A stretch of DNA of 63,010 nucleotides, the filler included, from Collodictyon triciliatum (taxonomy: Eukaryota), in NCBI GenBank assembly GCA_043381765.1. It is 4 parts of 4 records of this genome, joined end to end, with 100 filler letters (N's around TTAATTAATTAA, not from the genome) between each part and the next. Parts side by side here need not be neighbours in the genome. Positions count along the whole stretch, not along the records: positions 1 to 21,732 come from JBHJMP010001178.1; 3 more parts are not named here. One strand, given 5' to 3'. Under the pieces are notes generated by a model. The model was given only the letters and a program-made list of their open reading frames with translations. It made no database searches and was not told the DNA's origin. Position 1 is the first letter of the stretch, and every line of letters starts with the position of its first letter. Positions 2,821 to 50,222 of this stretch are shown here, piece after piece. The position numbers and the translations under genes were made by a program.

Positions 2821-3463
2821 ATATTTGCCGTTCCCTTCGTCCAAGTGGTGGAGCTTGCCAGGGGCAAGAACCTGTCTGGTTGGGGGAGGAAAAATGATTA
2901 TGATAAAGAAGAAAAAGAGTAAAGTGAACCAGGGAGTCTTGCAGCTCCTGTCAGGCAAGCCAACCGCGCTATGTCGCTCCTCTCATCTATACCTCAGCCC
3001 CTCCTTCCACGTCGAATCGCCTGACTCTGCACAACCAGTCTTGTTGATCGAGGCGCATGTTGTGTTTCGAGCAAGCTCTTCTCTCCTGTCTGGTTCTGCC
3101 TTTTTTTTAGCTCCTTCGTTCTATCTATATTTTGTCTTCCTGGCCGCCGCCGCCGCCACCACCACTATGGCTGGTGCAGCCGGTGGGTCTTTGTGCCTGA
3201 CTGGCCACGCGCCTGCCTAAGTGCAGCGGCCATGCGCACAGGCCATTGATGGCGACCCTTGTGCACGGCCGGCATTTATGCGCCTGCTGTGGCTGGGAGT
3301 GTGAGAGGAACAGAGACGCAGAGAAACAAAGCCGACAAGGAGGAGACCAACTCATATACTCACACACACACATACACACACACCAGCAGGCAGACAGAAC
3401 CGACCGGCCACACGGAGACGGACACGGACGCGGACTCCGGGCAGCGACGAGAAGAGAGGAGAG

Positions 3464-6408
3464 ATGAAGTTTGGGAAGCGGCTGGGACAGGAGGCGGTGG
3501 CGGAGTGGGCGGGGCACTACGTGGACTACAAATTGCTGAAGATGCTGATCAAGCAGGAGGCGGAGGGGGCGGCAGAGGGGGCGGCAGAGGCAGAGGCAGA
3601 GGCAGAGGCGGGGGCGTTCGAGCGGGAGCTGGTGCGGCAGGTGCAGGGCGTGGACGCGTTTGTGGACGGGGAGCTGGTGCGGCTGAGCCGGGCGCTGGCT
3701 GAGGCGGAGACGGGGCTGGCGGCGGAGGTGCGGCCGGAGGGCGTGCGGGCGTTTGCGGAGGTGTGCGAGGCGGTGGAGCGGGTGCGGGCGTTTGTGGCGC
3801 TCAACCACCTGGCGGTCACCAAGATCGCAAAGAAGCACGCCAAGCGCTGCCTGCCGCCGGGCGCCGACTGGCTGGACTGGGTGTGGCGCCGCTGGCAGCC
3901 GCTGGGCAAGGCGCAGCCCCTCACCAACCTGCTGGCCCACACCCACCGCCTCGCCGCACGCCTGCTGCCCCGCCCCCTCGTCGACCGCCACGCCGCATGC
4001 GCCTCCTGCTCCCACGCCCTGCCGCCGCCCCACGCCCCCGTCGTCGTCCTCGCCTGCGCCCACCGCCTCTGCCCCGACTGCCGCACCCGCCTCGCCGCAC
4101 ACGCCCGCGCCCGCGCAAAGGCCCACCTGCGCTGCCCGGAGTGCCTCGCCCGCCACGCCCTCGCCCACCTGCCCCCGGACGGGCCGCAGCCACACGCCCA
4201 GCCACATGACCAGCCACAGCCGCAGCCACAGCCACAGCCACAGCCGTCCCCGCCCGCCCCGTCTGCGCCCCGCAACATCGACCACGCGCTCTTTGCCGCC
4301 CACCCTGCCCCGCCCTCCCCGCCGCACTCGCTCTCCGACTCGTGGTCCCTCGCCGCCCACCTCGCCACAGACTCCTCCTGCGCCGCACTCTCGCCCACCA
4401 GAAACCGTATGCCTTTGCCGCACGCGCACCCACACACGCGCCTCCGCTTCTCACCCCTCCCCTCCTCCCCTCCTCCCCTCCCCCTGCAGCCCCCGCCACA
4501 GGCATCGGCATCGGCATCGGCATAGGCATCGGCATCGACACCGCCTCGCACCCCCACTCCGCCACGCACGGACACTCCAGCTGGACCTCGCTTCGCCCGC
4601 CCCCTGCAGCCACAACCAAAGCCACTGCTGCGTCATCGTCGCTGTCCCCAACACCATCGCCACAACAGCCACAGCCCATCGCAACCGCAGCCGCCACAAA
4701 GAAGGTCCTTTGGATCCACGTCTCCGGCTGCGACCCGGACCTGTGCTGCTTCGCGCCGCCGTCCGCATCCGTGGGCAACACAATCACCCCGACGCTCGGC
4801 GCCCTGCTGTCCGAGTCTGCCTACAGCCTGGGTCTGGCGTCCAAGCGCCTCCCGCCCCCGAGGCCAGCACGCCGCACAGCCACAGCCACAGCCACAGCCA
4901 CAGCCACAGCCGCATCTGGACCGCACGTGCGCGGGCTGCAGGGCGTGCGGGGCCGTGAGGCGGCGTGGTTTGCGGCGCTGACGGGCGTGTGGCCAGACCC
5001 CAGCGTGGTCCCGCCGCGCACGCAGCTCAAGAGGCACCCGCCGCTCTTTGCCCGCCTGCGCTCTGCACGCCGCTCCGCTGCGGTTTTCCTGCGCTCCGAC
5101 CAGAACGAGCTGCGCCGTTGGGCCCACCCGAGCGCCTCCACCCTGCAGCTCTTCAGCTCGGACGCCCTCACCGCAGCCGCCGTCGCCGCATTCCTGCGCC
5201 CCGCCACCCCAGACCCACCGCAGCCACAGCCGCAGCCACATGCGCACCACCGCCGCCGTCGCCACAGCAACAGCCACAAGCACAGCCACCGGCGTCCCGG
5301 CGCCAACCCGACGCCCACCCCCGTGCCCGACGTGACGTACGTGCACCTGGCCAACCCCCTGACGCGGGGCTCCGACGTGGAGACGCGTCTGCGCGCGACC
5401 ACCGAGGCCGACCGCCACGTGGGGCAACTGGTCGATGCGCTCAGGGACCGGCAGGCTGATGCCCGACTGGCTGCGGCCGAGGACTGGATGCTTGTCGTCA
5501 CCCTCATGCACGAGGAACCCGCTGGCGCCTGCGATCTGTCCACGGCCCTCCGCTGGCTCATCCAGTCGCTGCCTCCTCCCTCTCCAAATCCAAATCCAAA
5601 CCCAAACCCAAACCCAATCCCAGATCCAATCTCAGATCAAGACTCGGCCGCCCCCGCAGACGACCCGCGCATGACGCCCACCGCCATCCTCCTCCTCGCC
5701 AACCCGGCACTCGAGAGAGGCCCTCTTCCCCGCTCACCAACCTTTGTCGACATCGTCCCCACCATCCTCAACCACATCGACATCTCTGCAGACAGCTCGT
5801 CTCCACTCGATGGGTCGCCACTTCGCACAGGAAGGGCCGCAGCTGCTGGCTGGGCTGGCGAGGAAGACGAAGACGAAGACAGTGAAGATGATGATCATGG
5901 TGTCGAAGAAGATTTTGCTGGCCATGATTCTATTGATGACCAGTACTCTCTAAACCATTCTCCTGATGGTCGTGCCATCCGTCAGGACTCGCACGCTACC
6001 AGTAGCGACATCCAGTCGGCTCACTTGCGATACGTATCTGATAACCTCGGAACCATCAATATACAGCAAAACACGCTCTTTACCACAGCTTCATCCACGT
6101 CCTGCAGCTTCGACAAACCAGTCCAACAGGCTGCCAGGTCGCCTTTTACCAGTCACCCAGTCCTCGGAACCCCCTCTGGCTCCATCTCTGCATCCATAGG
6201 TAGCGTCCACCCCACTGTGCTTGGTGCCGTCGGTAGCCTATCATCGAAGGGATTCCTGGGGACTGCTTACCAATCACATCCGACTCACCCACAGGCTTCA
6301 GAGAAAATTGCACCCTCTTCAACCAACTGCTCCAATAGAAGATGGTCCACAATTGCTCACAATCGACAACTCATGAAAGACGAGGAAGTCTTTGAAATCG
6401 AATTATAA
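3464..6408 (+). CDS. SPX domain + C3HC4 RING + alkaline phosphatase/nucleotide pyrophosphatase-like domain protein (2 exons, about 953 aa)
   Basis: MKFGKRL...EWAGHYVDYKLLKMLIK...KIAKKHAK is SPX. CASC-x15-CAHRLCPDC-x17-CPEC (3998-4144) is a RING. KKVLWIHVSGCDPD...LTGVWPD...PDVTYVHL...EDWMLVVT...VDIVPTILNH...LDGSPL (4699-5823) is AP-superfamily. A phase-1 GT-AG intron 4407-4489 (or 4407-4501) joins ORFs 3464..4525 and 4342..6408. Confidence 0.8.
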
Positions 6409-6686
6409 TGTTCTAATCAAGATAATTCTTTTTCGTCAGTCATTTCCCTACTCACTCTGCCCCTTTCTCCTCTCCTTTCTCTTTCCCTCTCCCTCTCCCT
6501 CTCCCTCTCCCTCTCCCTCTCTCTCTTTTTCCGCTACAAATCCACTACTTCACTCCATTGCGCACTCACCTTTGTCTAGCCCGCCCTTGCAGCATCTCCC
6601 TATCTTTCCATTAAGTTCGTATCGTATTCCTTATCCCTTGGCGATAAGGTTCGGATTAAAAATTAAGGAGCAGTTAGATCCGCGGT

Positions 6687-18275: not shown

Positions 18276-20301
18276 TTACTCGTCCTCGTCTCCGGCCTCC
18301 TCGGCCTCCCGCTTCTTGCGCTTCTGCTCCTCATACTCAGCCTCGTCCTTCGCGGTCGGGTCTGACGCCTCGTTCTCGGCCTGCGACTCGGTCTGGATGG
18401 GCGGAAGCGGCTGGGGTGTGAATGCTGCGGCCTGGTAGCGGAGGCCGTTGCCGTAGTAGACTGTTCCAAACTTCTTGCCGAGCCCTGTCGTGTGTGTGGA
18501 CGAGACTTTGTGTCAACAGCGGGTTGAAAAGACAGCTGGGTTATCTAAAGCGGCCTACCGTATGTGAAGGACCCGGGCCACACGTTGGATGCCAGAAACA
18601 CAGGGATGTGCTTTGAGCGGAGCAGCTCGGCTGTCGGGGACTTGAGACGCCATGCAGATAACCCAGGCGACACTAGTGGGGTCATCGAAACAATGGAGAT
18701 AGATACAGAGACAGAGATGAGATTCATCAAACAGAGGGTATCGCATGATATGAAGGCAGCAGCGCGGGGCATTTGTCTCGAAGGCTTACGCTTGTCCTCT
18801 GAGACCGGCGTGAGGATGCCTGGTCCAGTCTCTTTGTTTGGGTCTTCCTTCTCTTCCTCTCCCTCATCCTCCTCCCCCTCGACATTCTCTTTGGGGGCGC
18901 TCCAGTACGTGATGCGGCCCTGTGGAAGGATAAATCTCCGGTGGTGAACCCAGGTCGAGAGTTTGGCAAGCTCTTTGGAATCAGGCTCTTCAAACTCTGC
19001 ATTAATCTCAGGGTCCCCGGTAGCCACTGAGGAGAATTTGTCAAGAGAGTGAGTATGCGGTAACTTGACATTATTGAGCTCCGAATAAATTGAAAGATTT
19101 ATGTTTACGATGTGAATCAGTACAATTCTATATTAACTCATGATGATTCGTCGGAGATGTTATGCGAGGGTTGCTGCATACTTACACGTTTCTTCATCAG
19201 CATCTTCTCCAAAATGGAAGAATCCCTTGGGTGACACAGTTGTGCTGTGGACTATGCGTGATATTTGCGCTCTGAGGTAGGATGCTTCGTTTCCTGGGAA
19301 AGGTGGATAGCTAAGTACAGGCTTCTCGAGGTTTCCTGTAAATCCCTTGCGAATCTTTCGAGCTGCTACAATCTGTGCCGGTGTGACATCGGGAAGTTTT
19401 ACCCAAGGCTTGCCAAAAACTGTGTATGAAAAAGTGCGATACATAAGCACATTATTTATTTATTTATTTATTCTGGATGTGAATTAGGGAGAGAACATTC
19501 AATTCCCCCCGAAAAAAAAACAAAAAAAAAAGTGTTATATTGGTGAATTTAAAGTGTTCTAGATCGATGCATCGAGTTAGAGAGATGGGTAGGAAAAAGG
19601 AAAGGGGAATTTACGGCCAAACAATGTTAATGGAACACTGTGGTGCAAGCATAAAATTGTTCTTACTATTCGTAGTGACCCAGTAGATGTACTTGTTAGG
19701 TCCAGTCTGTTTTTCTGTTGGGACAACAACGGGCTTCTTTGGTTTGGGTCTTTTGGGTGCTGCTTCTCCATCGCCATCGCCGTCACCATCATCTCCTTCC
19801 TTATCACCAGCATCTTCATCCTTATCCTCCTTGTCCCCTTCCTCACCTTCATCACCTTTTACATCTGACTCCACGATGTAGTAATCATTATGGAATCCTG
19901 TGACTCTTCCAAAGTAACGGACATTCGTCAGCTGATGTGTACCCACAAGCTCTTTGATCGTGAGAAACTGGTGGTTGTATGTGTTTCAACCGTCAATATT
20001 AAGATAGTATTCCAGTATAAGTTTGAAAATCATAGATGAGACATCTTACAACATATTACAATCATTTTCTAGATTGTGCGCACATGCATTTACAGCTTAC
20101 ACCATTACTGGATATCAGATGTATAAAATAATCGTAACGGTGTATTACAAGGCGAAGGGAATCAGTTTGGTTCAGTCCAAGTCCAACCATACGGTGATAG
20201 CTAAACTCCTCGAGGAAGTTGGGCATTTCGACATCGGCTGTGTTTGTCTCTTCGTTCTCGTCATCTTCTCCTTTGGGTTTTTCTTGCTTCTGCGAGCATG
20301 T

Positions 20302-20351
<50 letters not shown>

Positions 20352-21055
20352 NNNNNNNNNNNNNNNNNNNNNNNNNNNNNNNNNNNNNNNNNNNNNNNNN
20401 NNNNNNNNNNNNNNNNNNNNNNNNNNNNNNNNNNNNNNNNNNNNNNNNNNNNNNNNNNNNNNNNNNNNNNNNNNNNAAAATTGATGATTTATGATTTGAC
20501 CACTACATGAATGTAATAAGATTCTTCTTAGATTGAGGAAATATCCATAGACTTGACTCTAATTTTGAACAAAGAAAGGATGATATGACAATACTCACGG
20601 TAAGCATTTTTGTTGCTCGTGAAAGTGCCTCATGTGCAGCCTCCTCATATGTGTCACCCTGCAGACCGTAATGGGCGATGTAGAAACAAAAAGTATGTTA
20701 GTCTGCGAGTTAAGTAATCAAAAAAAGAAAAATCCAGGAAGAGATTTCGCAACCACTTCATGGGCATTAATCAGTGATCCTCGAGCCAACAAAGAGAATA
20801 TTGAAGAAACAAGAGGCGAAAGTCTGGCACCGCATCAGTGGCGTCCTTGGATTTAGGCCGGCGAGGATCGAGAGCCGAGAGAGGCTTCTTGGTGCGGACT
20901 TGGGAGGAGTAGTGCTCAAAGGCTTTCCGGGGATCGGCCGGTTTGTCTGTGAGCAGTTGCGAGACGATTGTTGTCATGTGATCAAAGAGACTGTTTCCGT
21001 CGACATCGGGCTTCTGGAAGTAGTTGAGTGCGTCCTCGTATGTGATCTGCGACAT
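18276..21055 (-). CDS. Radial spoke head protein 4/6 family (RSPH4A/RSPH6A-like), spanning a gap
   Basis: Motifs [71 protein letters not shown]...[32 protein letters not shown] and [10 protein letters not shown], followed by an acidic C-terminus. Confidence 0.92.
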
Positions 21056-21966
21056 TGCTCGGTCCGGCTGCCTCTTGGCTGTCTTTGCGTCTGGGAGGGA
21101 AGGCGGCTGGGGTTGCGTTGCGCGATTCGCGCGGCTTTGGTTGTCTCTCTCTGCGGAGATTGTTTGCAGTGAATCTATGTGGGGAGTCAGACACGGCACA
21201 AAGGCAGGCTCCTGATTGTGATACGGTTTGATGGGAGGAGAGGCCGCGGCACAACCGTGTGTATGTATGTGTGTCTTCTGCGATTCTGCCGAGACTCGGG
21301 CGGCGAGCTTGTTTGTTCGATTGTGGGAGAACTGCTCGCCTCTTCTGATGGCTATGATCGTTTTCCAACGGAATCTCAAAATGAGCTTTTTGATTGAACA
21401 TACAGATCATGTGTATGTGTTTGTATATTGTTTCGTACATTGATATGAAGGATTTTTCTTTGAATAAAAGTTCCAACTGAGCATCGTAATTGTGGAAAAC
21501 ATTTATTTATTGCATTAGTATAGCAAATTTAGCAGAATTTCTCTAAATATACCACAATATATGATATTTTGCAAATGTTTTATCATCTTAGTGTCTGCTG
21601 TGATTCCAAGACCACAATGGCGGTACATTTTTAAGAAAAACATACACAGCGCAGTTCGCTAGAAAAAAACAAAAAACAAAAACAAAAAAACAAAAAAACA
21701 AAAAACAAAAAAACAAAAAAACAAAAAACAAANNNNNNNNNNNNNNNNNNNNNNNNNNNNNNNNNNNNNNNNNNNNTTAATTAATTAANNNNNNNNNNNN
21801 NNNNNNNNNNNNNNNNNNNNNNNNNNNNNNNNAAGAGAAAAGAAAAAAGAGAAAAGAAAAAAGAGAAAAGAAAAAAGAGAAAAGAAAAAAGAGAAAAGAA
21901 AAAAGAGAAAAGAAAAAAGAGAAAAGAAAAAAGAGAAAAGAAAAAAGAAAAAGAAAAAGAATTGCT

Positions 21967-24081
21967 ATGGATAAGGCTGCACGAGGGGAAAATGTAGAGC
22001 GTGTGCCAGTCTGGATCATGAGACAAGCTGGTCGTTACCTTCCTGAGTACCGTCAGCTCATGAGAGACAAAGAATTCTTCCAGGTGAGGACAATTTCGAA
22101 TTTTGCCAAAATATCTTTCTGGTCTCGAAAAATAGCCAAGTCGCCTTCTCATTCTTGTAGTATCTGATTTTGTGGTGAGAAAAAGAAAAGGAAGCAAACC
22201 CAATTATATGTGGCATATTTTTTTTTGAAAAGTTAAGCCAAACTGTGGTGCTATGATATTTATTCATAGATTAATATTGGATTTTCTTGATATGAAGTAG
22301 TTTTTCATAATTAATCATGAAATTTCATCATAAAGAGATGTTGAATTGCAACCACACAGTTATATATCATTTCTATGTCTTTTTACTTGTAATGCAATAT
22401 ACAACGGAAGAAATGACATTTCATATTGTAATATTTTCCCTAAAAAATAATAATCAGGCATGCAGAACCCCCGAGATTGCGAGTGAAATCACCCTTCAAC
22501 CAATCAACCGATTCCCACTGGATGCAGCCATCATATTCAGTGACATATTGGTTATCCCCCAAGCGATGGGAATGGAAGTGAAGGTCGCATTCCTTATATA
22601 TATATTATTGATTTGATGTTGTTTATGGTGAGATTTTACAAGCTCATCTTAATTACCTCTGTACCGAGCAAAACATCTCACACTTAACTGTGTCCCTTTT
22701 ATCGCCTACCCGTTATTATGAATTATTTTTATTTTATTTTGCAGTAATAGGTTTCTTATACCTGAAATATATAGAAATTCGATAAAATAACAAGAACTTC
22801 GATATTCACTGTTTTACATGAATCTTATTATCAGATGGAGAAAGGGTCTGGTCCTCATTTTCCATCTCCCCTGGTATCACCAGCAGATATTGAAAAATTG
22901 ACCCCAGCGGACCAAATAGACGTCAACAAGTCTCTTGGCTATGTCTTTGAAGCCATCACTATGACCAGACAAAAACTTGGCGGGAAGGTTTTGCCTCTTA
23001 CAATTAATGTCCTCTCAATGTCTCCCTTCGCCAATAGTACTGCTATTATTCGTACATACATATGTCGCCAACGAACATGGGTGGATACCACTTATATTGA
23101 AACTATCAATTCAACCATCTACTTCTCGCCGTCATATTTATCTCAATAGCTTTTATGCCCTTTTGCAGGTTCCATTGATAGGATTCTGCGGTGCTCCGTG
23201 GACGTTGCTTGCTTACATGACGGAAGGGAGTGGTTCTCGTCTATACTCTGTGGCCAAGACGTGGTTGTATCAGCACACCAAAGAATGCCACCAAATTCTT
23301 CAGCGTATCACTGACGTTGCCGTGGATTATCTCGTTGGTCAAGTGCTCGCTGGTGCTCAGGCCTTACAAGTCTTTGAATCTACTGCGGGTGAACTTAGTC
23401 CTGACGCTTTCAATGAATTCTCTCTTCCATATCTGAAGCAAATATGCGAAAGGGTGAAAAGTAAGCTTATTGAAATCAAAAGGACCAATCCCGAGCTTCT
23501 CCATGTAATTTATTCATATACATACTATACATTTCATGGAATCACCAAAAGCACTATGTTCTATGCAGAGATTGTTTCTTTCATAAGAATCGTTCTAAAC
23601 GACCACAAGATGGTTGACAGATATCTTAGCTGGGACATTTTTCTTCTTCTCTTCTATGGCAGTGATATTATTCCATAGACACTAGTGATTACTATTTTAT
23701 TTGCAGGATGAATCATTGCCGCCAATGATTGTGTTTGCCAAGGGAGCCCATTATGCGTTTGGGTCTTTGGCCAACAGCGGATACGATGCCATTTCGGTGG
23801 ACTGGACCGTATCACCTGCAGCTGCTCGACAGCAAACGGCATTTTCCATCACTCTACAGGGAAACATGGACCCAGGGCTGTTGTTCGGGCCAGAGGATTT
23901 AATCCGCAAAGAAGCTCGCCGTATGGTTGACGGGTTTGGGCCTCAGAAGTTAATCGGCAATCTAGGCCATGGAATGCACCCTTCGCACGACCCCGCCAAG
24001 CTTGGTGCCTACATCGATGAAATTCAAAAGTACTCCAAGGCCCTGGTAGAGAAGCAGTCAGCCAGTAAGGAGCCATCATAA
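21967..24081 (+). CDS. UROD: Uroporphyrinogen decarboxylase; the 5' end may lie in the upstream gap
   Basis: Motifs [54 protein letters not shown] and NLGHG. Five phase-consistent exons. Confidence 0.97.
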
Positions 24082-38621: not shown

Positions 38622-41600
38622 TTATCCGGCACCATCTATGCGTCTTGGCGGGGAGGTGAACGACACATTCGCGAGTGAAGCTGTTTGGGGAGAGGATGGC
38701 GGTCTCGGCTTAAAGCGAGGTGTTCCTGTCGGGGATGTGCGCTCAAGCGACGCTTTTTGCCTCGGTGGTGCAGGCCCGGATGGGGGTTCAGTTGGTTGTT
38801 CACCCTTCAAGAAGCCGCGGGTGTTGGCCGCGCCGGAATAATCTGCTGCTCGGGGCGTCCCTCGAGCGTGCCTTCTCGATGAGTCAATAGCCGGAAGACC
38901 AATCGACGCTACCTAATGAATAATAGGAGAAAAAGAAAAAAACCAAAAGATTCAGGACTCAAGAGAGTTCCCATCAAGTAAAGCCCAGGAAGGAAACATG
39001 GCGAGTGGGCGTCCAAGGGAGATGAGGTTTGAAGAGGCTACCTTAGGTTCTGGTAATGTGGGCAGTTGGTGGACAGGTTTCAGCTTGACGATGCCTGCTG
39101 TCATCGTTGACGAATTGGGGTCCGGGTCTGAGTATGGGATGGCCAAAGACCCTTGAACGCCCTTCTGTCGGGGTGATAATCCCAACAGAACGACAGATGT
39201 ATTTGTGCCAGAGTCTGTTTTGATACGCAACTTGCCTGGGGCATTGCTGACCTGCTGGAGAGTACCAAAGTCTGAGGCGGTGCCGGATACTTCCCGCCGT
39301 TCTCGAAAAGTCAGAGCACCACTTCCTTGCGTACTGGCTGAACTTCTGACGCTCGACAAATCCAAGGGTGGCAAGGCGCTCTCAAGAAGTCGCTGTGTCA
39401 AGTCAGGCCAGTGTCCATTCTCCATCGTCTCTACCTGGGACTGGTATCCTTCGAAGGCCCTTCTACGCAGCAGAGCAGACTGTTGTGGCTGGTGAATGAT
39501 GGACACGTGCGAAGGGGTTTTCTCGGGTAGTCGGTGAAGTGGGGGAGGGAGCGAGAGTGGAGGCTCTTTTGTGCTGGAGGGGCGACTCAATCCCTCGGTT
39601 TCTTCTGCGTCCTCAGGGTTCTCAAGTTTATCATCCATATCCTCGGGGTTGCTGTTTTTATGTACACCAGGTGCGTCAAGAGGATGAGGCGGCTTGGGAG
39701 CAGAGGAAACTCGCTCAAGGTCAAGAAGTTGTAGTAAGAAATCCTGCTGGGTTTGCTCGGTAAGTGAGTCGTCACACAGAAAATTGTCCCTGAAGCCGTC
39801 ACCAAAATCGCAGCCGCGTAGGTTTTGGTGATTGTTTTTGTCTGATTCTGCGGGTATGATTAATGAATTTATTTTTCAAAGCAACATCAACCTTGAGGTA
39901 TTCCCTGGCGATATCTGATGCTATAGAATATGTCTACTGAAATAAGAAAAACGTAAAAACAGATATACATCCAAAAATAAAAATAAAAAAATAGACGCGA
40001 CACGTACTCGCTGACAGCATCTGTACTGTGTTTTGGTGGGCCCCAAGGACGCCGGTTTGCTGGTCCATCTGTGGTGAGGATTTCTGTGCAATGGAATCTG
40101 GAGAATGTAACGGATTCGCAGGTCTCCCCTTTTTCTTTGATTCTATGGTCTCCATGAGAAGTTTCAAACAACTAAGGTACACACCGTCTTCTGCGATGAA
40201 TAACGGAGTGTCTCCAGATTTGGTTGGGCGCATAGGGTCTGAATTATAATCCAGAAGCATCTTTGTAATGATATGGTCTCCTTTCATGCACGCAAAGTGG
40301 ATGGCTCTCTCTCCAAGGTTGTTTTCAATGTCCACACTCGCGCGGGAATTCAGTAGAAAGAGGACCCAATTCGCTTTTCCTTGCGCCGCTGCCATTTGAA
40401 GAGCGGTAACGTCACGACCATCAGCAAAATCAATATCAAATTGAGGTATATTGACAAGAAACTTTGCTATTTCAAGGCGGTCATATTTTACACACTCTTG
40501 TAAGAGTCCTTTTGGGCCTTTGTATTTTGCAAGAGTGCAATATTCTGCCAGCCTTTCTATAGTTTCCAATCTATTAAACTCGATGAGCTCATGTATGATT
40601 GTGTGTTCTTTGTCATTTTGCAAATCCCACTTGCAGCCAGCGTTGAGTAGGAACACACATAGGTCACCTTTGTCTTTGGTAGTTTTGGTCAGGTCACTCT
40701 TCATATCGGCTATCGCATAATGCAGTACGCATCTTTTATCCTTGTCTTGCGCGTCTTTGTCTGCACCAGCTTTTATCAGAATATCACATATATCCTTTAA
40801 TCCCAACCACGCAGCTAGATGTAGCCCTGTTTTCCCATCTCTGTCAACAACTTGGGTATCAACACCATAGCGTAGCATAACCATAACCATCGACTTCGAC
40901 TTGCGCGTTATAGCTTCGTGTAGCACTGGATTCTGTGATGCCAAACAAATAGGGGCGAACGAAAGGCCTTCTTGGAACATAAGCTCCAAACAGTCCTGGT
41001 CTTCTGTTTGCAGCGCTAAACAAAAGCATGAATGTCCGTCTCTTGTGAAACATCTGCCAGATTTTTCATAATCCAGTAAAAGTCTTAAAATGATGTACCT
41101 TTTCTCTAAGACACAGACGTGCATACTGCTGAGCCCGTAGTTGTTCAGTTTAGTAACATCTGCTCCACATTCCAAGAGAATTTTTGCAAGCTCCTCGTCA
41201 GAATTGTAGCAAGCCAGGTGAAGCGGGGTATTACCATCAGAGCCTGTTTTGTTAACAAAATTGAACTCTCGGGCCAGTACGCAAGTGGCGGTTATGTACC
41301 GGTTTCTGATGGCATAGCGCAGCATACTTTCATCACTTTTAGATCTCTTGAATCCAACTATATATTTCTTTTCCACGTGGCCAGTTACCAGACGAAGAAT
41401 ATTTATTCGACTCGGATAATCACCTGCATCTGATGCCCTCTTTAATATGTTATCATATTTTGAAGACTGGTCGACCACAGACTTTGGTATATGATGAGTC
41501 ATACGCACAGCCAGTTGGGGTGCTGTGATTCCATTGGAATCCTCTGCTTCTAATGACGGATTCGCAAGCAATATAATCTCGACACATTTCACACAGCCAC

Positions 41601-43382
41601 AATATATTGCGTCATGGAGGGCTGTTCTATTTTCCGGTGCTCGTTTGACTTCCATCGATGATGGGTCTTGTTTCAATAGAAATTCTAGTATTTCATGATG
41701 GTGGTTGCATATGGAAAGGTGAATGGCACACGGACCAATCGTACTCGTTTGAATCTTAGGTTGGGAACCATACCTCATGAGTGATTGCACTATATCAAAT
41801 CTCTTCTGTTTGACAACATCTGATTCAATTTGGAAAGTTGCATGCTCTTCAAAGTTATTTGGTCCGATGGCTACATGGAGTGCTGTTTTACCCTCTTTGT
41901 TTTTTGTGTGCACATTAAATCCACATTCCAAGATAATCTGAGCAGACACGACTTCAGCTATTTGGCAGGCATAATGCAGAGGAAAAATTCCCATGGGTGT
42001 TGCCATGCGTACAGAAGCTCCGTACTTTATAAGACAAGATACCATTGCATGAAGCTGATTTTCAATGGCATATAGAAGAGGCGTCACGTTTGTAGATAAC
42101 GCAATCGCATTTACGTTTGCCTTGAATTTAGCCAGGTACTCAATCATTTTTGCATATGAAGAGAACTTGTCCGAAGTTTCCCGGTAGCTTGGGGGTGATG
42201 AGCTAGGTGTTGGGATGGATGGAGGAGTACTAGCAGAAATATCAGAATTGTCGGAATATGCACTAGATGAGGAGCTCTGAATAAATGATGAAGCTTGCAT
42301 ATCTTTTCCAATTTGAGAGCCTTTGGAAAGATTGGAGACAGTTTGCAGAACTAAAAATAGAGGCGGTATATGAACAACCCCGGCATCGTTTGGGTCGAAT
42401 CCATCTTCAAGAAGAACAATTAAACACTCGAGATTGTTGACCATTATACATTCTTGAATGGGGGTCCATTTTTGGGACGATATATCATCTTTGTTATGAC
42501 TTTCATTCAATAATCTCTTGAGTATCATTCCTTTCCCAGCGCGGCACGCTATTATGATGGGCGAATCTCCATTTGTTGTGTTGTAGCATAAAATCGATGG
42601 AAATAGAAATATGATGCGGTCAACTACTAGGTAATATCCTAGATGTACAGCGTGATGAAATCCATTCCAACCATCTCTATCAGTCAGAGCCATATTGATT
42701 CCAAAGTCCATAAACCCAAGGGCAATATTTGTTTTCTTTTGTAAGAGGGCAGATATGAACAGCGTGGTACCAGTCGACGTTAATGCATTTATGTCTGCTC
42801 CGTTGTCTAGAAGAAGTTTCATCCCATCTGTATTGCTCTTTTCTAAGCATACCTGTTCAAAAACATATGTATTTAATTATACCAGGATTCTGATGAAAAT
42901 AACTGAAAAATGGAAAATAATGGACACGACAACCAAAGGGATTCAACACTTTGCACATAACCACAAAGTATATATGAGATAAACTTGGATGAAAAACATA
43001 TGTAAGATAAAATAACCTCCATTGGCGTTTTTCCATTCACCCCAGGCTTGTTGGGGTCTGCTTTAAGATTGAGCAGCACTTCAGTCAAACACTTGGCCTC
43101 TGGTCCAAGTGATACAGACCAGTAGAGCAGGGCGCATCCATGAACCATTTCGTTTGGATAAACTGAGCCTTCTTGCACCATTTTTGCCAAAGTGACGAAG
43201 TCAGACTCTCGCAAGTATTTCCATACATCAATCTTGGGTGGGACATCCCGCGCAGAGCCAACAGCAGAGGAAGGTGTGCGGGGGTATCCAAGTTTCTGTG
43301 CCAACCCAGAGCCACTTGTGTCATTCGTTTCAGACGGCCTTCGTGAGTCCGTTGGGGGTGATGGCTGTGTGAACTTTCGCAT
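38622..43382 (-). CDS. Large ankyrin-repeat protein with a disordered Pro/Ser-rich C-terminal region
   Basis: Many ANK motifs (GNTPLHLAC, GKTGLHLAA, GKTALHVAI, GERAIHFAC, GDTPLFIA) lie in a ~2.8-kb exon. The upstream exon ends ADPNKPGVNGKTPME. Downstream open exons are ~39848-38990 and ~38890-38622. Exact 3' exon boundaries are uncertain. Confidence 0.85.
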
Positions 43383-43587
43383 GCAGGCTGTATACAAGAA
43401 ATTGTGGTCTCTTTCCTTTCTTTGTTGGTGGTTTATTAATAATTAAAAAAATACAAAAAACAAAACAAAAAACAAAAAACAAAAAACNNNNNNNNNNNNN
43501 NNNNNNNNNNNNNNNNNNNNNNNNNNNNNNNTTAATTAATTAANNNNNNNNNNNNNNNNNNNNNNNNNNNNNNNNNNNNNNNNNNNN

Positions 43588-45703: not shown

Positions 45704-46244
45704 CTTGCATAAAGGATTTTGTTCAGTGTTTTTTTTTTTTTTTTTGTTTTTTATAAAAAAACAGAGTATGGGCAGGGATGGGAAATATGACAATCTTTAT
45801 GCCTACTAGACTCCAATAAATTTAATGGGCATATACTTGTACATTTTGATGGCAGTTTTTTATATTTGATGTTATAAACAATCTTTTCTTGCTTCGTCGA
45901 TTGAATGATTAGATAAATTCCGCAAATAGAAGTATATTTTTTGGTTTGATTTGATCAGGCCACGGAATCTGATCCAACCCGCTAAAAGGCCGAGCCAAGA
46001 CCGATGTGAGCTGGACCGAAACCGCAGGATATCCAAAGTGTGTGCCAATGACAAGTAATACAAAGGCACACGTGAAGGACGGAGGAATCCAACAGAGTGG
46101 CGAAAAAAAGAATGCTTACCCAACAAGAATCCGATTTTCTGACTTCTGCGACATCTCACCCCCCATCCTTCTCCCTTCCTTGTTTCCTTTCCCCTCCGAA
46201 ACAAGGACCGATCGGCACGCGAATACAACCTTTTCGACTTGGAA

Positions 46245-50222
<3,978 letters not shown>

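Follow-up and report, generated by a model that had tools for sequence, protein, structure and literature searches.

The locus and its gene model

The SPX domain is a common eukaryotic read-out of cellular phosphate status, and its known partners are transporters, polyphosphate synthase, kinase inhibitors, transcription-factor binders and RING ligases. The locus described here occupies positions 3464 to 6408 of a 63,010-nucleotide stretch of DNA, hereafter the window, from the eukaryote Collodictyon triciliatum (GenBank assembly GCA_043381765.1); the window consists of four parts of four records joined with 100 filler letters between each part and the next, and positions 1 to 21,732, which contain the locus, derive from the record JBHJMP010001178.1. 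The element in question is a putative two-exon gene in which an SPX domain and a C3HC4 RING finger are followed by a linker, a degenerate domain of the alkaline phosphatase (AP) superfamily and a long tail.

Two overlapping stop-free frames are present at the locus, the first at 3305..4525 with its ATG at 3464 and the second at 4210..6408. Exon 1 measures 943 nucleotides (nt), containing 314 whole codons, so that the proposed intron is in phase 1; it has a length of 83 nt, with GT at 4407-4408 and AG at 4488-4489, and belongs to a set of 13 GT..AG pairs within 4210-4700 that keep the frame open. The joined coding sequence (CDS), 3464-4406 plus 4490-6408, amounts to 2862 nt and encodes 953 amino acids (aa) with no internal stop before the TAA at 6406-6408. 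This fusion of two frames into a protein of about 953 aa had been proposed in a first-pass annotation of the window, whose coordinates and arithmetic are correct; the domain order given there, from SPX through C3HC4 RING and AP-superfamily domain to an acidic and Ser-rich tail, is upheld as well. The features are collected in Table 1.

Table 1. Features of the SPX-RING-AP-like locus, with positions along the window and the evidence for each
Feature	Position	Strand	Evidence
Exon 1: ATG, SPX, RING and Pro/Gln-rich linker; ends in phase 1	3464..4406	+	Open reading frame and sequence; cDNA contigs 3624-4147 and 4258-4406
SPX domain, residues 1 to about 170 (C-terminal limit approximate), broken by a Glu/Ala repeat	3464..3973	+	PF03105, PDB matches, key residues
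C3HC4 RING finger, C179 to C227	3998..4144	+	Eight-ligand pattern; weak Pfam and PDB RING matches
Proposed phase-1 intron, 83 nt, GTATGC...pyrimidine tract...CTGCAG	4407..4489	+	Arithmetic, contig ends, likeness of the acceptor
TAG ending the 353-aa SPX-RING-only product upon intron retention	4523..4525	+	Frame 3305..4525; intron-retaining contig
Exon 2: linker, AP-like domain and tail, with TAA at 6406-6408	4490..6408	+	Open reading frame 4210..6408; collinear cDNA contigs 4550-4865 and 4924-6468
Degenerate AP-superfamily domain (PF01663/Phosphodiest-like), residues 384-765	~4696..5841	+	Subfamily HMM, library search, Atlas, AlphaFold2 and Foldseek
Acidic, then Ser/Thr-rich tail, 188 aa, 51% GC	5842..6405	+	Open frame; no Pfam or Atlas match

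The SPX domain and the RING finger

Exon 1 matches the Pfam model PF03105 in two stretches with 53.7 bits, in comparison to a gathering cut-off of 27.8 (expectation value, E=4.5e-14), and SPX structures in the PDB are found with E=6.8e-8 (5ijj), ~9e-4 (Vtc3) and 5.8e-3 (XPR1). The translation begins with MKFGK (M1-K2-F3-G4-K5) and contains Y22, K26 and the series K120-x2-K123-K124-x2-K127, the lysine helix being aligned to the sequence 'KIVKKHDK' of Vtc3; the YxxLK motif and the KxxKKxxK lysine cluster read in the first-pass annotation are therefore both in place. In accordance with the literature on SPX structures, Y22, K26 and K120/K123/K124/K127 are taken here to be residues of the inositol-polyphosphate surface. 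The domain is interrupted by a Glu/Ala repeat, which is encoded by a (GGCAGA)n array at 3559-3609.

The RING finger retains the complete set of C3HC4 ligands at canonical spacing, namely C179, C182, C198, H200, C203, C206, C224 and C227, and can be called intact, as had been claimed; in fact, the eight-ligand spacing pattern occurs in only two of the 625 stop-to-stop open reading frames (ORFs) of the window and in none of 20000 shuffles of exon 1. RING matches in the PDB are weak (TRIM23 and TRIM56, E=0.08-0.19), and the single-sequence AlphaFold2 (AF2) model of exon 1, with a predicted local distance difference test score (pLDDT) of 55 and values below 50 in the RING, was not used. The second ORF of the window with a complete C3HC4 pattern, at 46143-46526 (+), is unrelated to the SPX-RING gene.

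The AP-like domain: homology and fold

An AP- or nucleotide-pyrophosphatase-type domain had been recognised downstream of the linker from its residues, and this recognition is borne out by several other searches, though Pfam misses the domain. The trimmed domain has no PF01663 match at E<=10, none of its four repeat-free sub-segments gives any Pfam hit, and Sulfatase, with E=0.46, is the sole superfamily match; the failure of Pfam is due to inserts of hexamer microsatellites (4875-4911, 5221-5289 and 5584-5638) and to lost catalytic residues, which break the domain up. In an exhaustive phmmer search of 1.84 billion representative proteins, four proteins matched at E<=1e-3, and no match was as strong as E<=1e-10; PF01663 proteins, colinear across the whole domain, account for three of them (E=8.5e-5 to 8.6e-4), and the fourth is a match of a Pro/Asn repeat. 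The follow-up profile search returned 69 proteins, all with PF01663, and those source names that specify an organism are all bacterial, most of the rows being unnamed.

A subfamily hidden Markov model (HMM) was built from 52 PF01663 proteins, leaving out the window sequence and the first three matches; its members had been gathered by a profile that included the window sequence, and with this limit it matches the ORF 4210-6405 with E=9.4e-20, the next best of the 625 window ORFs having E=2. The match is composed of three colinear pieces (model positions 22-135, 179-240 and 257-305) in one frame and without frameshifts. In the ESM Atlas the ten best matches all belong to PF01663 or its clan, with a score of 0.94 and 165 of 256 shared features, slightly below the guide value of 170. 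The core motifs LTGVWP, HVGxLVDALR, EDWMLVV, VDIVPT and LDG, which are elements of the fold core, are retained.

The AF2 model of the domain, calculated from a 55-row alignment, has a pLDDT of 76.5 and a predicted TM-score of 0.76, with low confidence in the repeat inserts. Compared by Foldseek with the PDB, as the first-pass annotation had suggested, it gave 214 matches at E<=0.001, and those listed are members of the AP superfamily throughout, including LtaP/LtaS, YejM/PbgA, Xac NPP, ENPP1/3/6 and sulfatases (E from 3e-7 to 4e-5, TM 0.43-0.51); since the alignment was drawn from the same family that was then matched, this evidence of fold is partly circular. Judged by sequence comparison, the domain is a true, very diverged homologue of the bacterial PF01663 proteins of the AP superfamily.

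Loss of the catalytic site

The catalytic residues were compared in alignment A2 (MAFFT) at columns conserved at 96-100% among the other 54 rows. There the window protein has S393 in place of the family Asp of the GIDG motif, L605 in place of the Asp of DEAGH, a gap for the His of the same motif, M654 for the Asp of TDHG and A702 for the His of GGHGG; of the six metal ligands only the His of TDHG survives, as H655, and the other five are gone. Furthermore, the family KHG...N reads P-S-V...R. The nucleophile corresponds to an invariant Ser column of the family, which aligns with an ENPP5 Thr that is replaced by Ala in the sister entry 5veo; the window protein has S457 in this column by MAFFT and an Arg by the HMM alignment, in a loop with a pLDDT below 50.

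The disappearance of five of six metal ligands excludes a two-metal hydrolase and classifies the domain as a pseudoenzyme, that is, by its sequence, a homologue and not a working PF01663 enzyme. The earlier idea that the AP fold serves as a binding module agrees with this loss, and a reading of the domain as a phosphatase is ruled out. An enzyme that is still active as phosphodiesterase or phosphatase, whereby phosphate sensed by SPX would control both a hydrolase and a ligase, would be compatible with the retention of H655 and of S457 in an SGP nucleophile motif in the MAFFT alignment, and SPX is fused to an active glycerophosphodiesterase in fungal Gde1; with S, L, a gap, M and A at the metal positions, and with the HMM placing Arg in the nucleophile column of a poorly modelled loop, such activity is nonetheless highly improbable.

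Transcription of both halves and probable splicing of the intron

Both halves of the gene are transcribed, as contigs from two runs span 3624-4147, 4258-4406/4446 and 4550-6468. The loose ends of these contigs bear a template-switch adaptor, presumably of the SMART type, which identifies them as complementary DNA (cDNA), and at five of six adaptor junctions the adaptor is located directly ahead of plus-strand sequence. The sixth, in run X2 behind 6448, has the opposite sense and lies on a genomic CCC (6446-6448); it is probably a priming artefact of the template-switch oligonucleotide and not the start of an antisense RNA. Run X4 gave no contig and X3 covered only 6238-6468, neither of which argues for absence, and the contig gaps at 3268-3535, 4447-4549 and 4866-4923 are uninformative, as they coincide with microsatellites skipped by the tool.

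At the predicted donor, contig 9 of run X2 terminates exactly at 4406, while contig 10 of the same run starts at 4377, overlaps it by 30 nt and continues unspliced to 4446; an overlap of 30 letters corresponds to a fork in an assembly graph with k=31, which would imply two distinct continuations after 4406. On this reading of the fork, drawn from the contig ends, one continuation is the unspliced form, the second being unlisted; a spliced contig would have just 30 letters to the left of the joint. Over 4258-4406 the contigs are collinear with the genome, and the alternative donors at 4261, 4342 and 4345 are consequently disfavoured in those molecules. The acceptor CTGCAG with its pyrimidine tract resembles the acceptors of two introns of the uroporphyrinogen decarboxylase (UROD) gene in the window, TTTTGCAG and TTTGCAG. 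In addition, the downstream frame lacks any Met upstream of nt 5488, a position already inside the AP-like domain, and hence is not translatable alone from an ATG. Splicing is likely to fuse the two halves into one protein, and the retained-intron product, a 353-aa plain SPX-RING protein that ends at the TAG, is probably made as well.

Further observations concern the limits of the transcript. The contigs of three runs stop at 6468; a polyadenylation site at this position was considered and rejected, as 6469-6526 is a (CCTCTC)n array and the cover of X1 resumes at 6536-6672. An X1 cDNA contig over 3000-3251, which extends further left and has deletions of 1 nt and 3 nt in comparison to the window, may represent a long 5' untranslated region of the SPX-RING gene or an upstream transcript. 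Contigs of X1 and X2 match from 5172 on and are preceded by at least 255 unrelated letters, of which the last 30 before the junction are absent from the window; this junction might stem from a structural variant, a chimeric contig or a paralogue.

Coding differences and open-frame statistics

The cDNA originates from relatives, and 22 differences from the window were counted in the CDS. Exon 1 has two synonymous and no non-synonymous changes, the linker none and one, the AP-like domain five and one, the latter being a nonsense change, and the tail six and seven. The indels in the CDS, of 18 and 6 nt, each have a length divisible by three; of the two located ahead of the ATG, one measures a single base. 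Shuffled sequences keep the tail frame open in 7 of 20000 cases and the AP-like frame in 33 of 20000.

The nonsense change, 5159 C>A, converts codon 538 from TCG to TAG inside the AP-like domain; it is found in run X1 only, in one contig at a depth of 15.7, while X2 has C. It may reflect a genuine nonsense allele, arise as an artefact or hint that the domain can be dispensed with. The use of TAG as a sense codon was also considered and rejected, since long Pfam-supported frames of the window, such as a 980-aa ankyrin ORF and the UROD exons, are TAG-free under the standard code.

Competing explanations of the locus

The explanation preferred here, held with moderate confidence as a whole, is that of a single two-exon nuclear gene encoding a 953-aa protein composed of SPX, RING, linker, dead AP-fold domain and disordered tail, with the roles proposed below. 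Several points weigh against it. The spliced joint 4406/4490 is not reported in the cDNA contigs, the (GGCATC)n array after the acceptor being skipped by the tool; in one contig the intron is retained over 40 nt or more from its 5' end; and the 12 other GT..AG pairs likewise preserve the open frame. The gene is located in a sharp GC island (66-81% GC, ~3400-5800) in a window with about 30-45% GC outside genes, and this composition favours long chance frames, with frames of 368-441 aa on other strands here. Of the three domains for which the first-pass annotation had foreseen a profile check, SPX scores above its Pfam cut-off, the RING models remain below threshold (zf-RING_5, 18.8 vs 27.9 bits; zf-C3HC4, 14.3 vs 21) and exon 2 has no PF01663 (Phosphodiest) match at E<=1. 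The nonsense change at 5159, the recruitment of the HMM members by a profile containing the window sequence and the partial circularity of the fold evidence are to be added, together with the absence of a homologue having the SPX-RING-AP architecture, which leaves the reading with no comparative support.

A first alternative is that there is no fusion, that only the 353-aa SPX-RING protein is made and that the AP-like frame is an untranslated 3' relic of a former gene on the same transcript. The intron-retaining contig and the unreported joint agree with such a relic, as do the X1 nonsense change, the loss of five of six metal ligands with the insertion of microsatellites in the domain, and the frequency of chance long ORFs in GC-rich sequence. 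Several features stand against it: five of the six AP-like-domain substitutions leave the protein unchanged, neither CDS indel shifts the frame, the three-piece HMM match is colinear in a single frame without frameshifts, and the tail, with a GC content of 51%, stays open over 188 codons, as seldom happens in shuffles. The contigs also fork exactly at the predicted donor. This alternative is considered unlikely.

A second alternative accepts the fusion and regards the AP-like domain as ballast that serves no function and is in the course of being lost, in a protein that acts as a plain ligase of the NLA/Pqr1 type. The lost catalytic site, the repeat inserts in loops of low model confidence, the nonsense allele in one relative and the lack of a conserved homologue in the library of 1.84 billion proteins are all in line with ballast, but the synonymous bias (5/6) points to purifying selection on the domain and the motifs LTGVWP, EDW..V, VD..PT and LDG of its core are kept, so that this possibility appears quite unlikely.

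Tail, microsatellites and composition

The tail at 5842-6405 is present with the acidic and Ser-rich character ascribed to it, and it matches no family in Pfam and has no usable match in the ESM Atlas. The CDS contains seven in-frame microsatellites of hexamer (or 12-nt) units, at 3559-3609, 4183-4246, 4501-4537, 4875-4911, 5221-5289, 5584-5638 and 5863-5880, which encode EA, PQ, GI, TA, PQ/HR, PN and ED repeats, and two of them vary in length, the cDNA of the relatives having 18 additional nt behind 4606 and 6 additional nt behind 5862.

At third codon positions the GC content reaches 0.90 in exon 1 and 0.79 in the AP-like domain; the tail of the same gene has 0.48, and eight further coding stretches of the window have 0.36-0.65. 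The GC skew reverses from +0.4 to -0.4 at ~3800. Biased gene conversion and a 5'-to-3' gradient are possible causes of this high-GC outlier. A bacterial contaminant or a simple bacterial transfer was rejected as the cause, because the GC content peaks in the SPX-RING exon, which is specific to eukaryotes, and the neighbours are eukaryotic.

Other genes in the window

The stretches 18548-21406 (-) and 22965-24081 (+) contain pieces of a radial-spoke-head gene (PF04712), which indicate a flagellated or ciliated eukaryote, and the UROD exons, which are separated by AT-rich introns of ~180-200 nt that end in TGCAG. The ankyrin-repeat ORF at 39937-42876 (-) is intron-free (980 aa; Ank_2, E=5e-81) and is directly adjoined, in another frame, by an ORF at 42876-43442 that is possibly its N-terminal exon. 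A protein with KH and GYF domains, a nucleotide-sugar-transporter-like gene and a GNAT-like ORF are also present.

Proposed function and significance

In the preferred explanation, which takes the 953-aa protein as the product and plant NLA and fission-yeast Pqr1 as its models, the SPX domain would sense the phosphate status of the cell via inositol pyrophosphates (InsPs), and a ubiquitin-conjugating enzyme (E2) would be brought in by the RING for the ubiquitination of targets; the regulation by InsPs and the ubiquitin ligase (E3) activity are thus carried over from the respective families. The dead AP-fold domain would most likely be a binding or scaffold module for the recognition of a substrate or of a phospho-ligand and not a hydrolase. 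Incomplete removal of the 83-nt intron would, in turn, give the conventional 353-aa SPX-RING protein too. As a whole, the gene is a probable lineage-restricted variant of the NLA/Pqr1-type SPX-RING ligases to which a non-catalytic AP-fold module has been added.

A bolder and rather doubtful proposal is that the gene represents a fifth kind of SPX effector, an InsP-gated RING ligase that captured a bacterial-type phosphodiesterase domain, now inactivated, as a receptor, with regulated intron retention as a switch between a plain NLA-like form and a receptor-bearing form; if true, the receptor would serve a phosphoester metabolite, as a second input of phosphate status, or the choice of the substrate for ubiquitination. 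With its disabled phosphodiesterase fold, the ligase would be a further case of a pseudoenzyme drawn into phosphate signalling, and the module would be well enough defined for a ligand or a partner to be looked for. The gene also suggests a technical caution, since architecture surveys based on Pfam or CDD, such as the two cited below, would score the gene as a plain SPX-RING or miss it. The weight of these considerations is limited to a single lineage, represented by the window and two closely related cDNA data sets, with function assigned by analogy.

Comparison with known systems

The first-pass annotation had described an InsP-regulated E3 with an additional AP-fold module and no known equivalent. 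The architecture is in fact unmatched in the searches. The description stands in part, with the qualifications that the support for the fusion intron is indirect, that the AP-fold domain is not an enzyme of its family and that one relative's cDNA has a stop codon inside this domain. Neither a protein of the same architecture nor anything closely related to one or the other half was retrieved from the 1.84-billion library, in word-index searches or in metagenome scans, where 599 pattern matches for the AP-like domain and 265 for exon 1 yielded none confirmed by tblastn. The word-index searches with exon 1 (8000 candidates scored each) found no SPX-RING protein, low-complexity words probably crowding the search, and tell nothing about relatives; the 'longer' search gave one match, Coemansia Pho81 (E=8.1e-4), and the 'near' search none. 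Full-text literature searches, judged partly by titles and the starts of abstracts, found no fusion of SPX-RING with an AP-superfamily or phosphodiesterase domain. In its available portion, a survey of SPX architectures lists SPX-VTC, SPX-CitMHS, SPX-RING-BET, Kelch-SPX and others and mentions no AP-superfamily partner (10.1101/2021.08.24.457498), and the same holds for the accessible part of a dinoflagellate survey with the classes SPX, SPX-EXS, SPX-VTC and SPX-other (PMC12388464). The SPX-RING ligase is a known type, and the added pseudo-phosphodiesterase domain is apparently undescribed.

The closest systems in terms of the N-terminal half are Arabidopsis NLA and fission-yeast Pqr1, in which an N-terminal SPX is likewise followed by a C3HC4 RING; the 353-aa retained-intron product would have exactly that architecture, while the 953-aa protein differs from both by the AP-fold domain, the long tail and the Glu/Ala insert in SPX. 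According to the report on Pqr1, this ligase requires both SPX and RING, lowers the level of phosphate transporters and is needed for moving Pho84 and Pho842 off the cell surface, the ubiquitination of Pho84 being largely dependent on it; the same report regards Pqr1 as the likely functional orthologue of Arabidopsis NLA, which limits phosphate uptake via PHT1 (PMC8294586).

The AP-like domain resembles the bacterial PF01663 proteins (e.g., P0002 and P0003), to which it is homologous, colinearly and along its full length (identities of 25-36% with the other 54 rows of A2), and with which it shares the fold and the motifs LTGVWP, HVG..(L/V)D.(L/V)R, EDW(L/M).(L/V)V, VD(I/V).PT and LDG. These bacterial proteins stand alone with ~270-330 aa, some of them with a lipoprotein-type leader (P0003), and keep all metal ligands; in contrast, the window domain lacks five of the six, contains three microsatellite inserts and is located behind SPX-RING. 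Xac NPP and ENPP1-7 belong to the same superfamily and have the same fold, the family Ser being aligned with the nucleophile Thr of ENPP5. However, the ENPPs are secreted or membrane-bound two-metal enzymes, whereas the window domain has no metal site and is predicted to be cytosolic, owing to its position behind SPX-RING and to the absence of a visible signal peptide.

Two further systems offer precedents for the combination proposed here. YejM/PbgA is a precedent for an AP-fold domain that acts mainly as a sensor or binding module, and its periplasmic domain is among the best structural matches of the window domain (Foldseek ranks 3, 6, 7, 18 and 42); it differs in being a bacterial inner-membrane protein with no link to ubiquitination and in sharing only 11-12% sequence identity. 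The fungal proteins Gde1 and Pho81 (SPX-ankyrin-GDPD), in turn, are precedents for the coupling of SPX to a phosphodiester-hydrolase fold, in their case without a RING and with a GDPD domain, a TIM barrel of a different fold from the AP superfamily.

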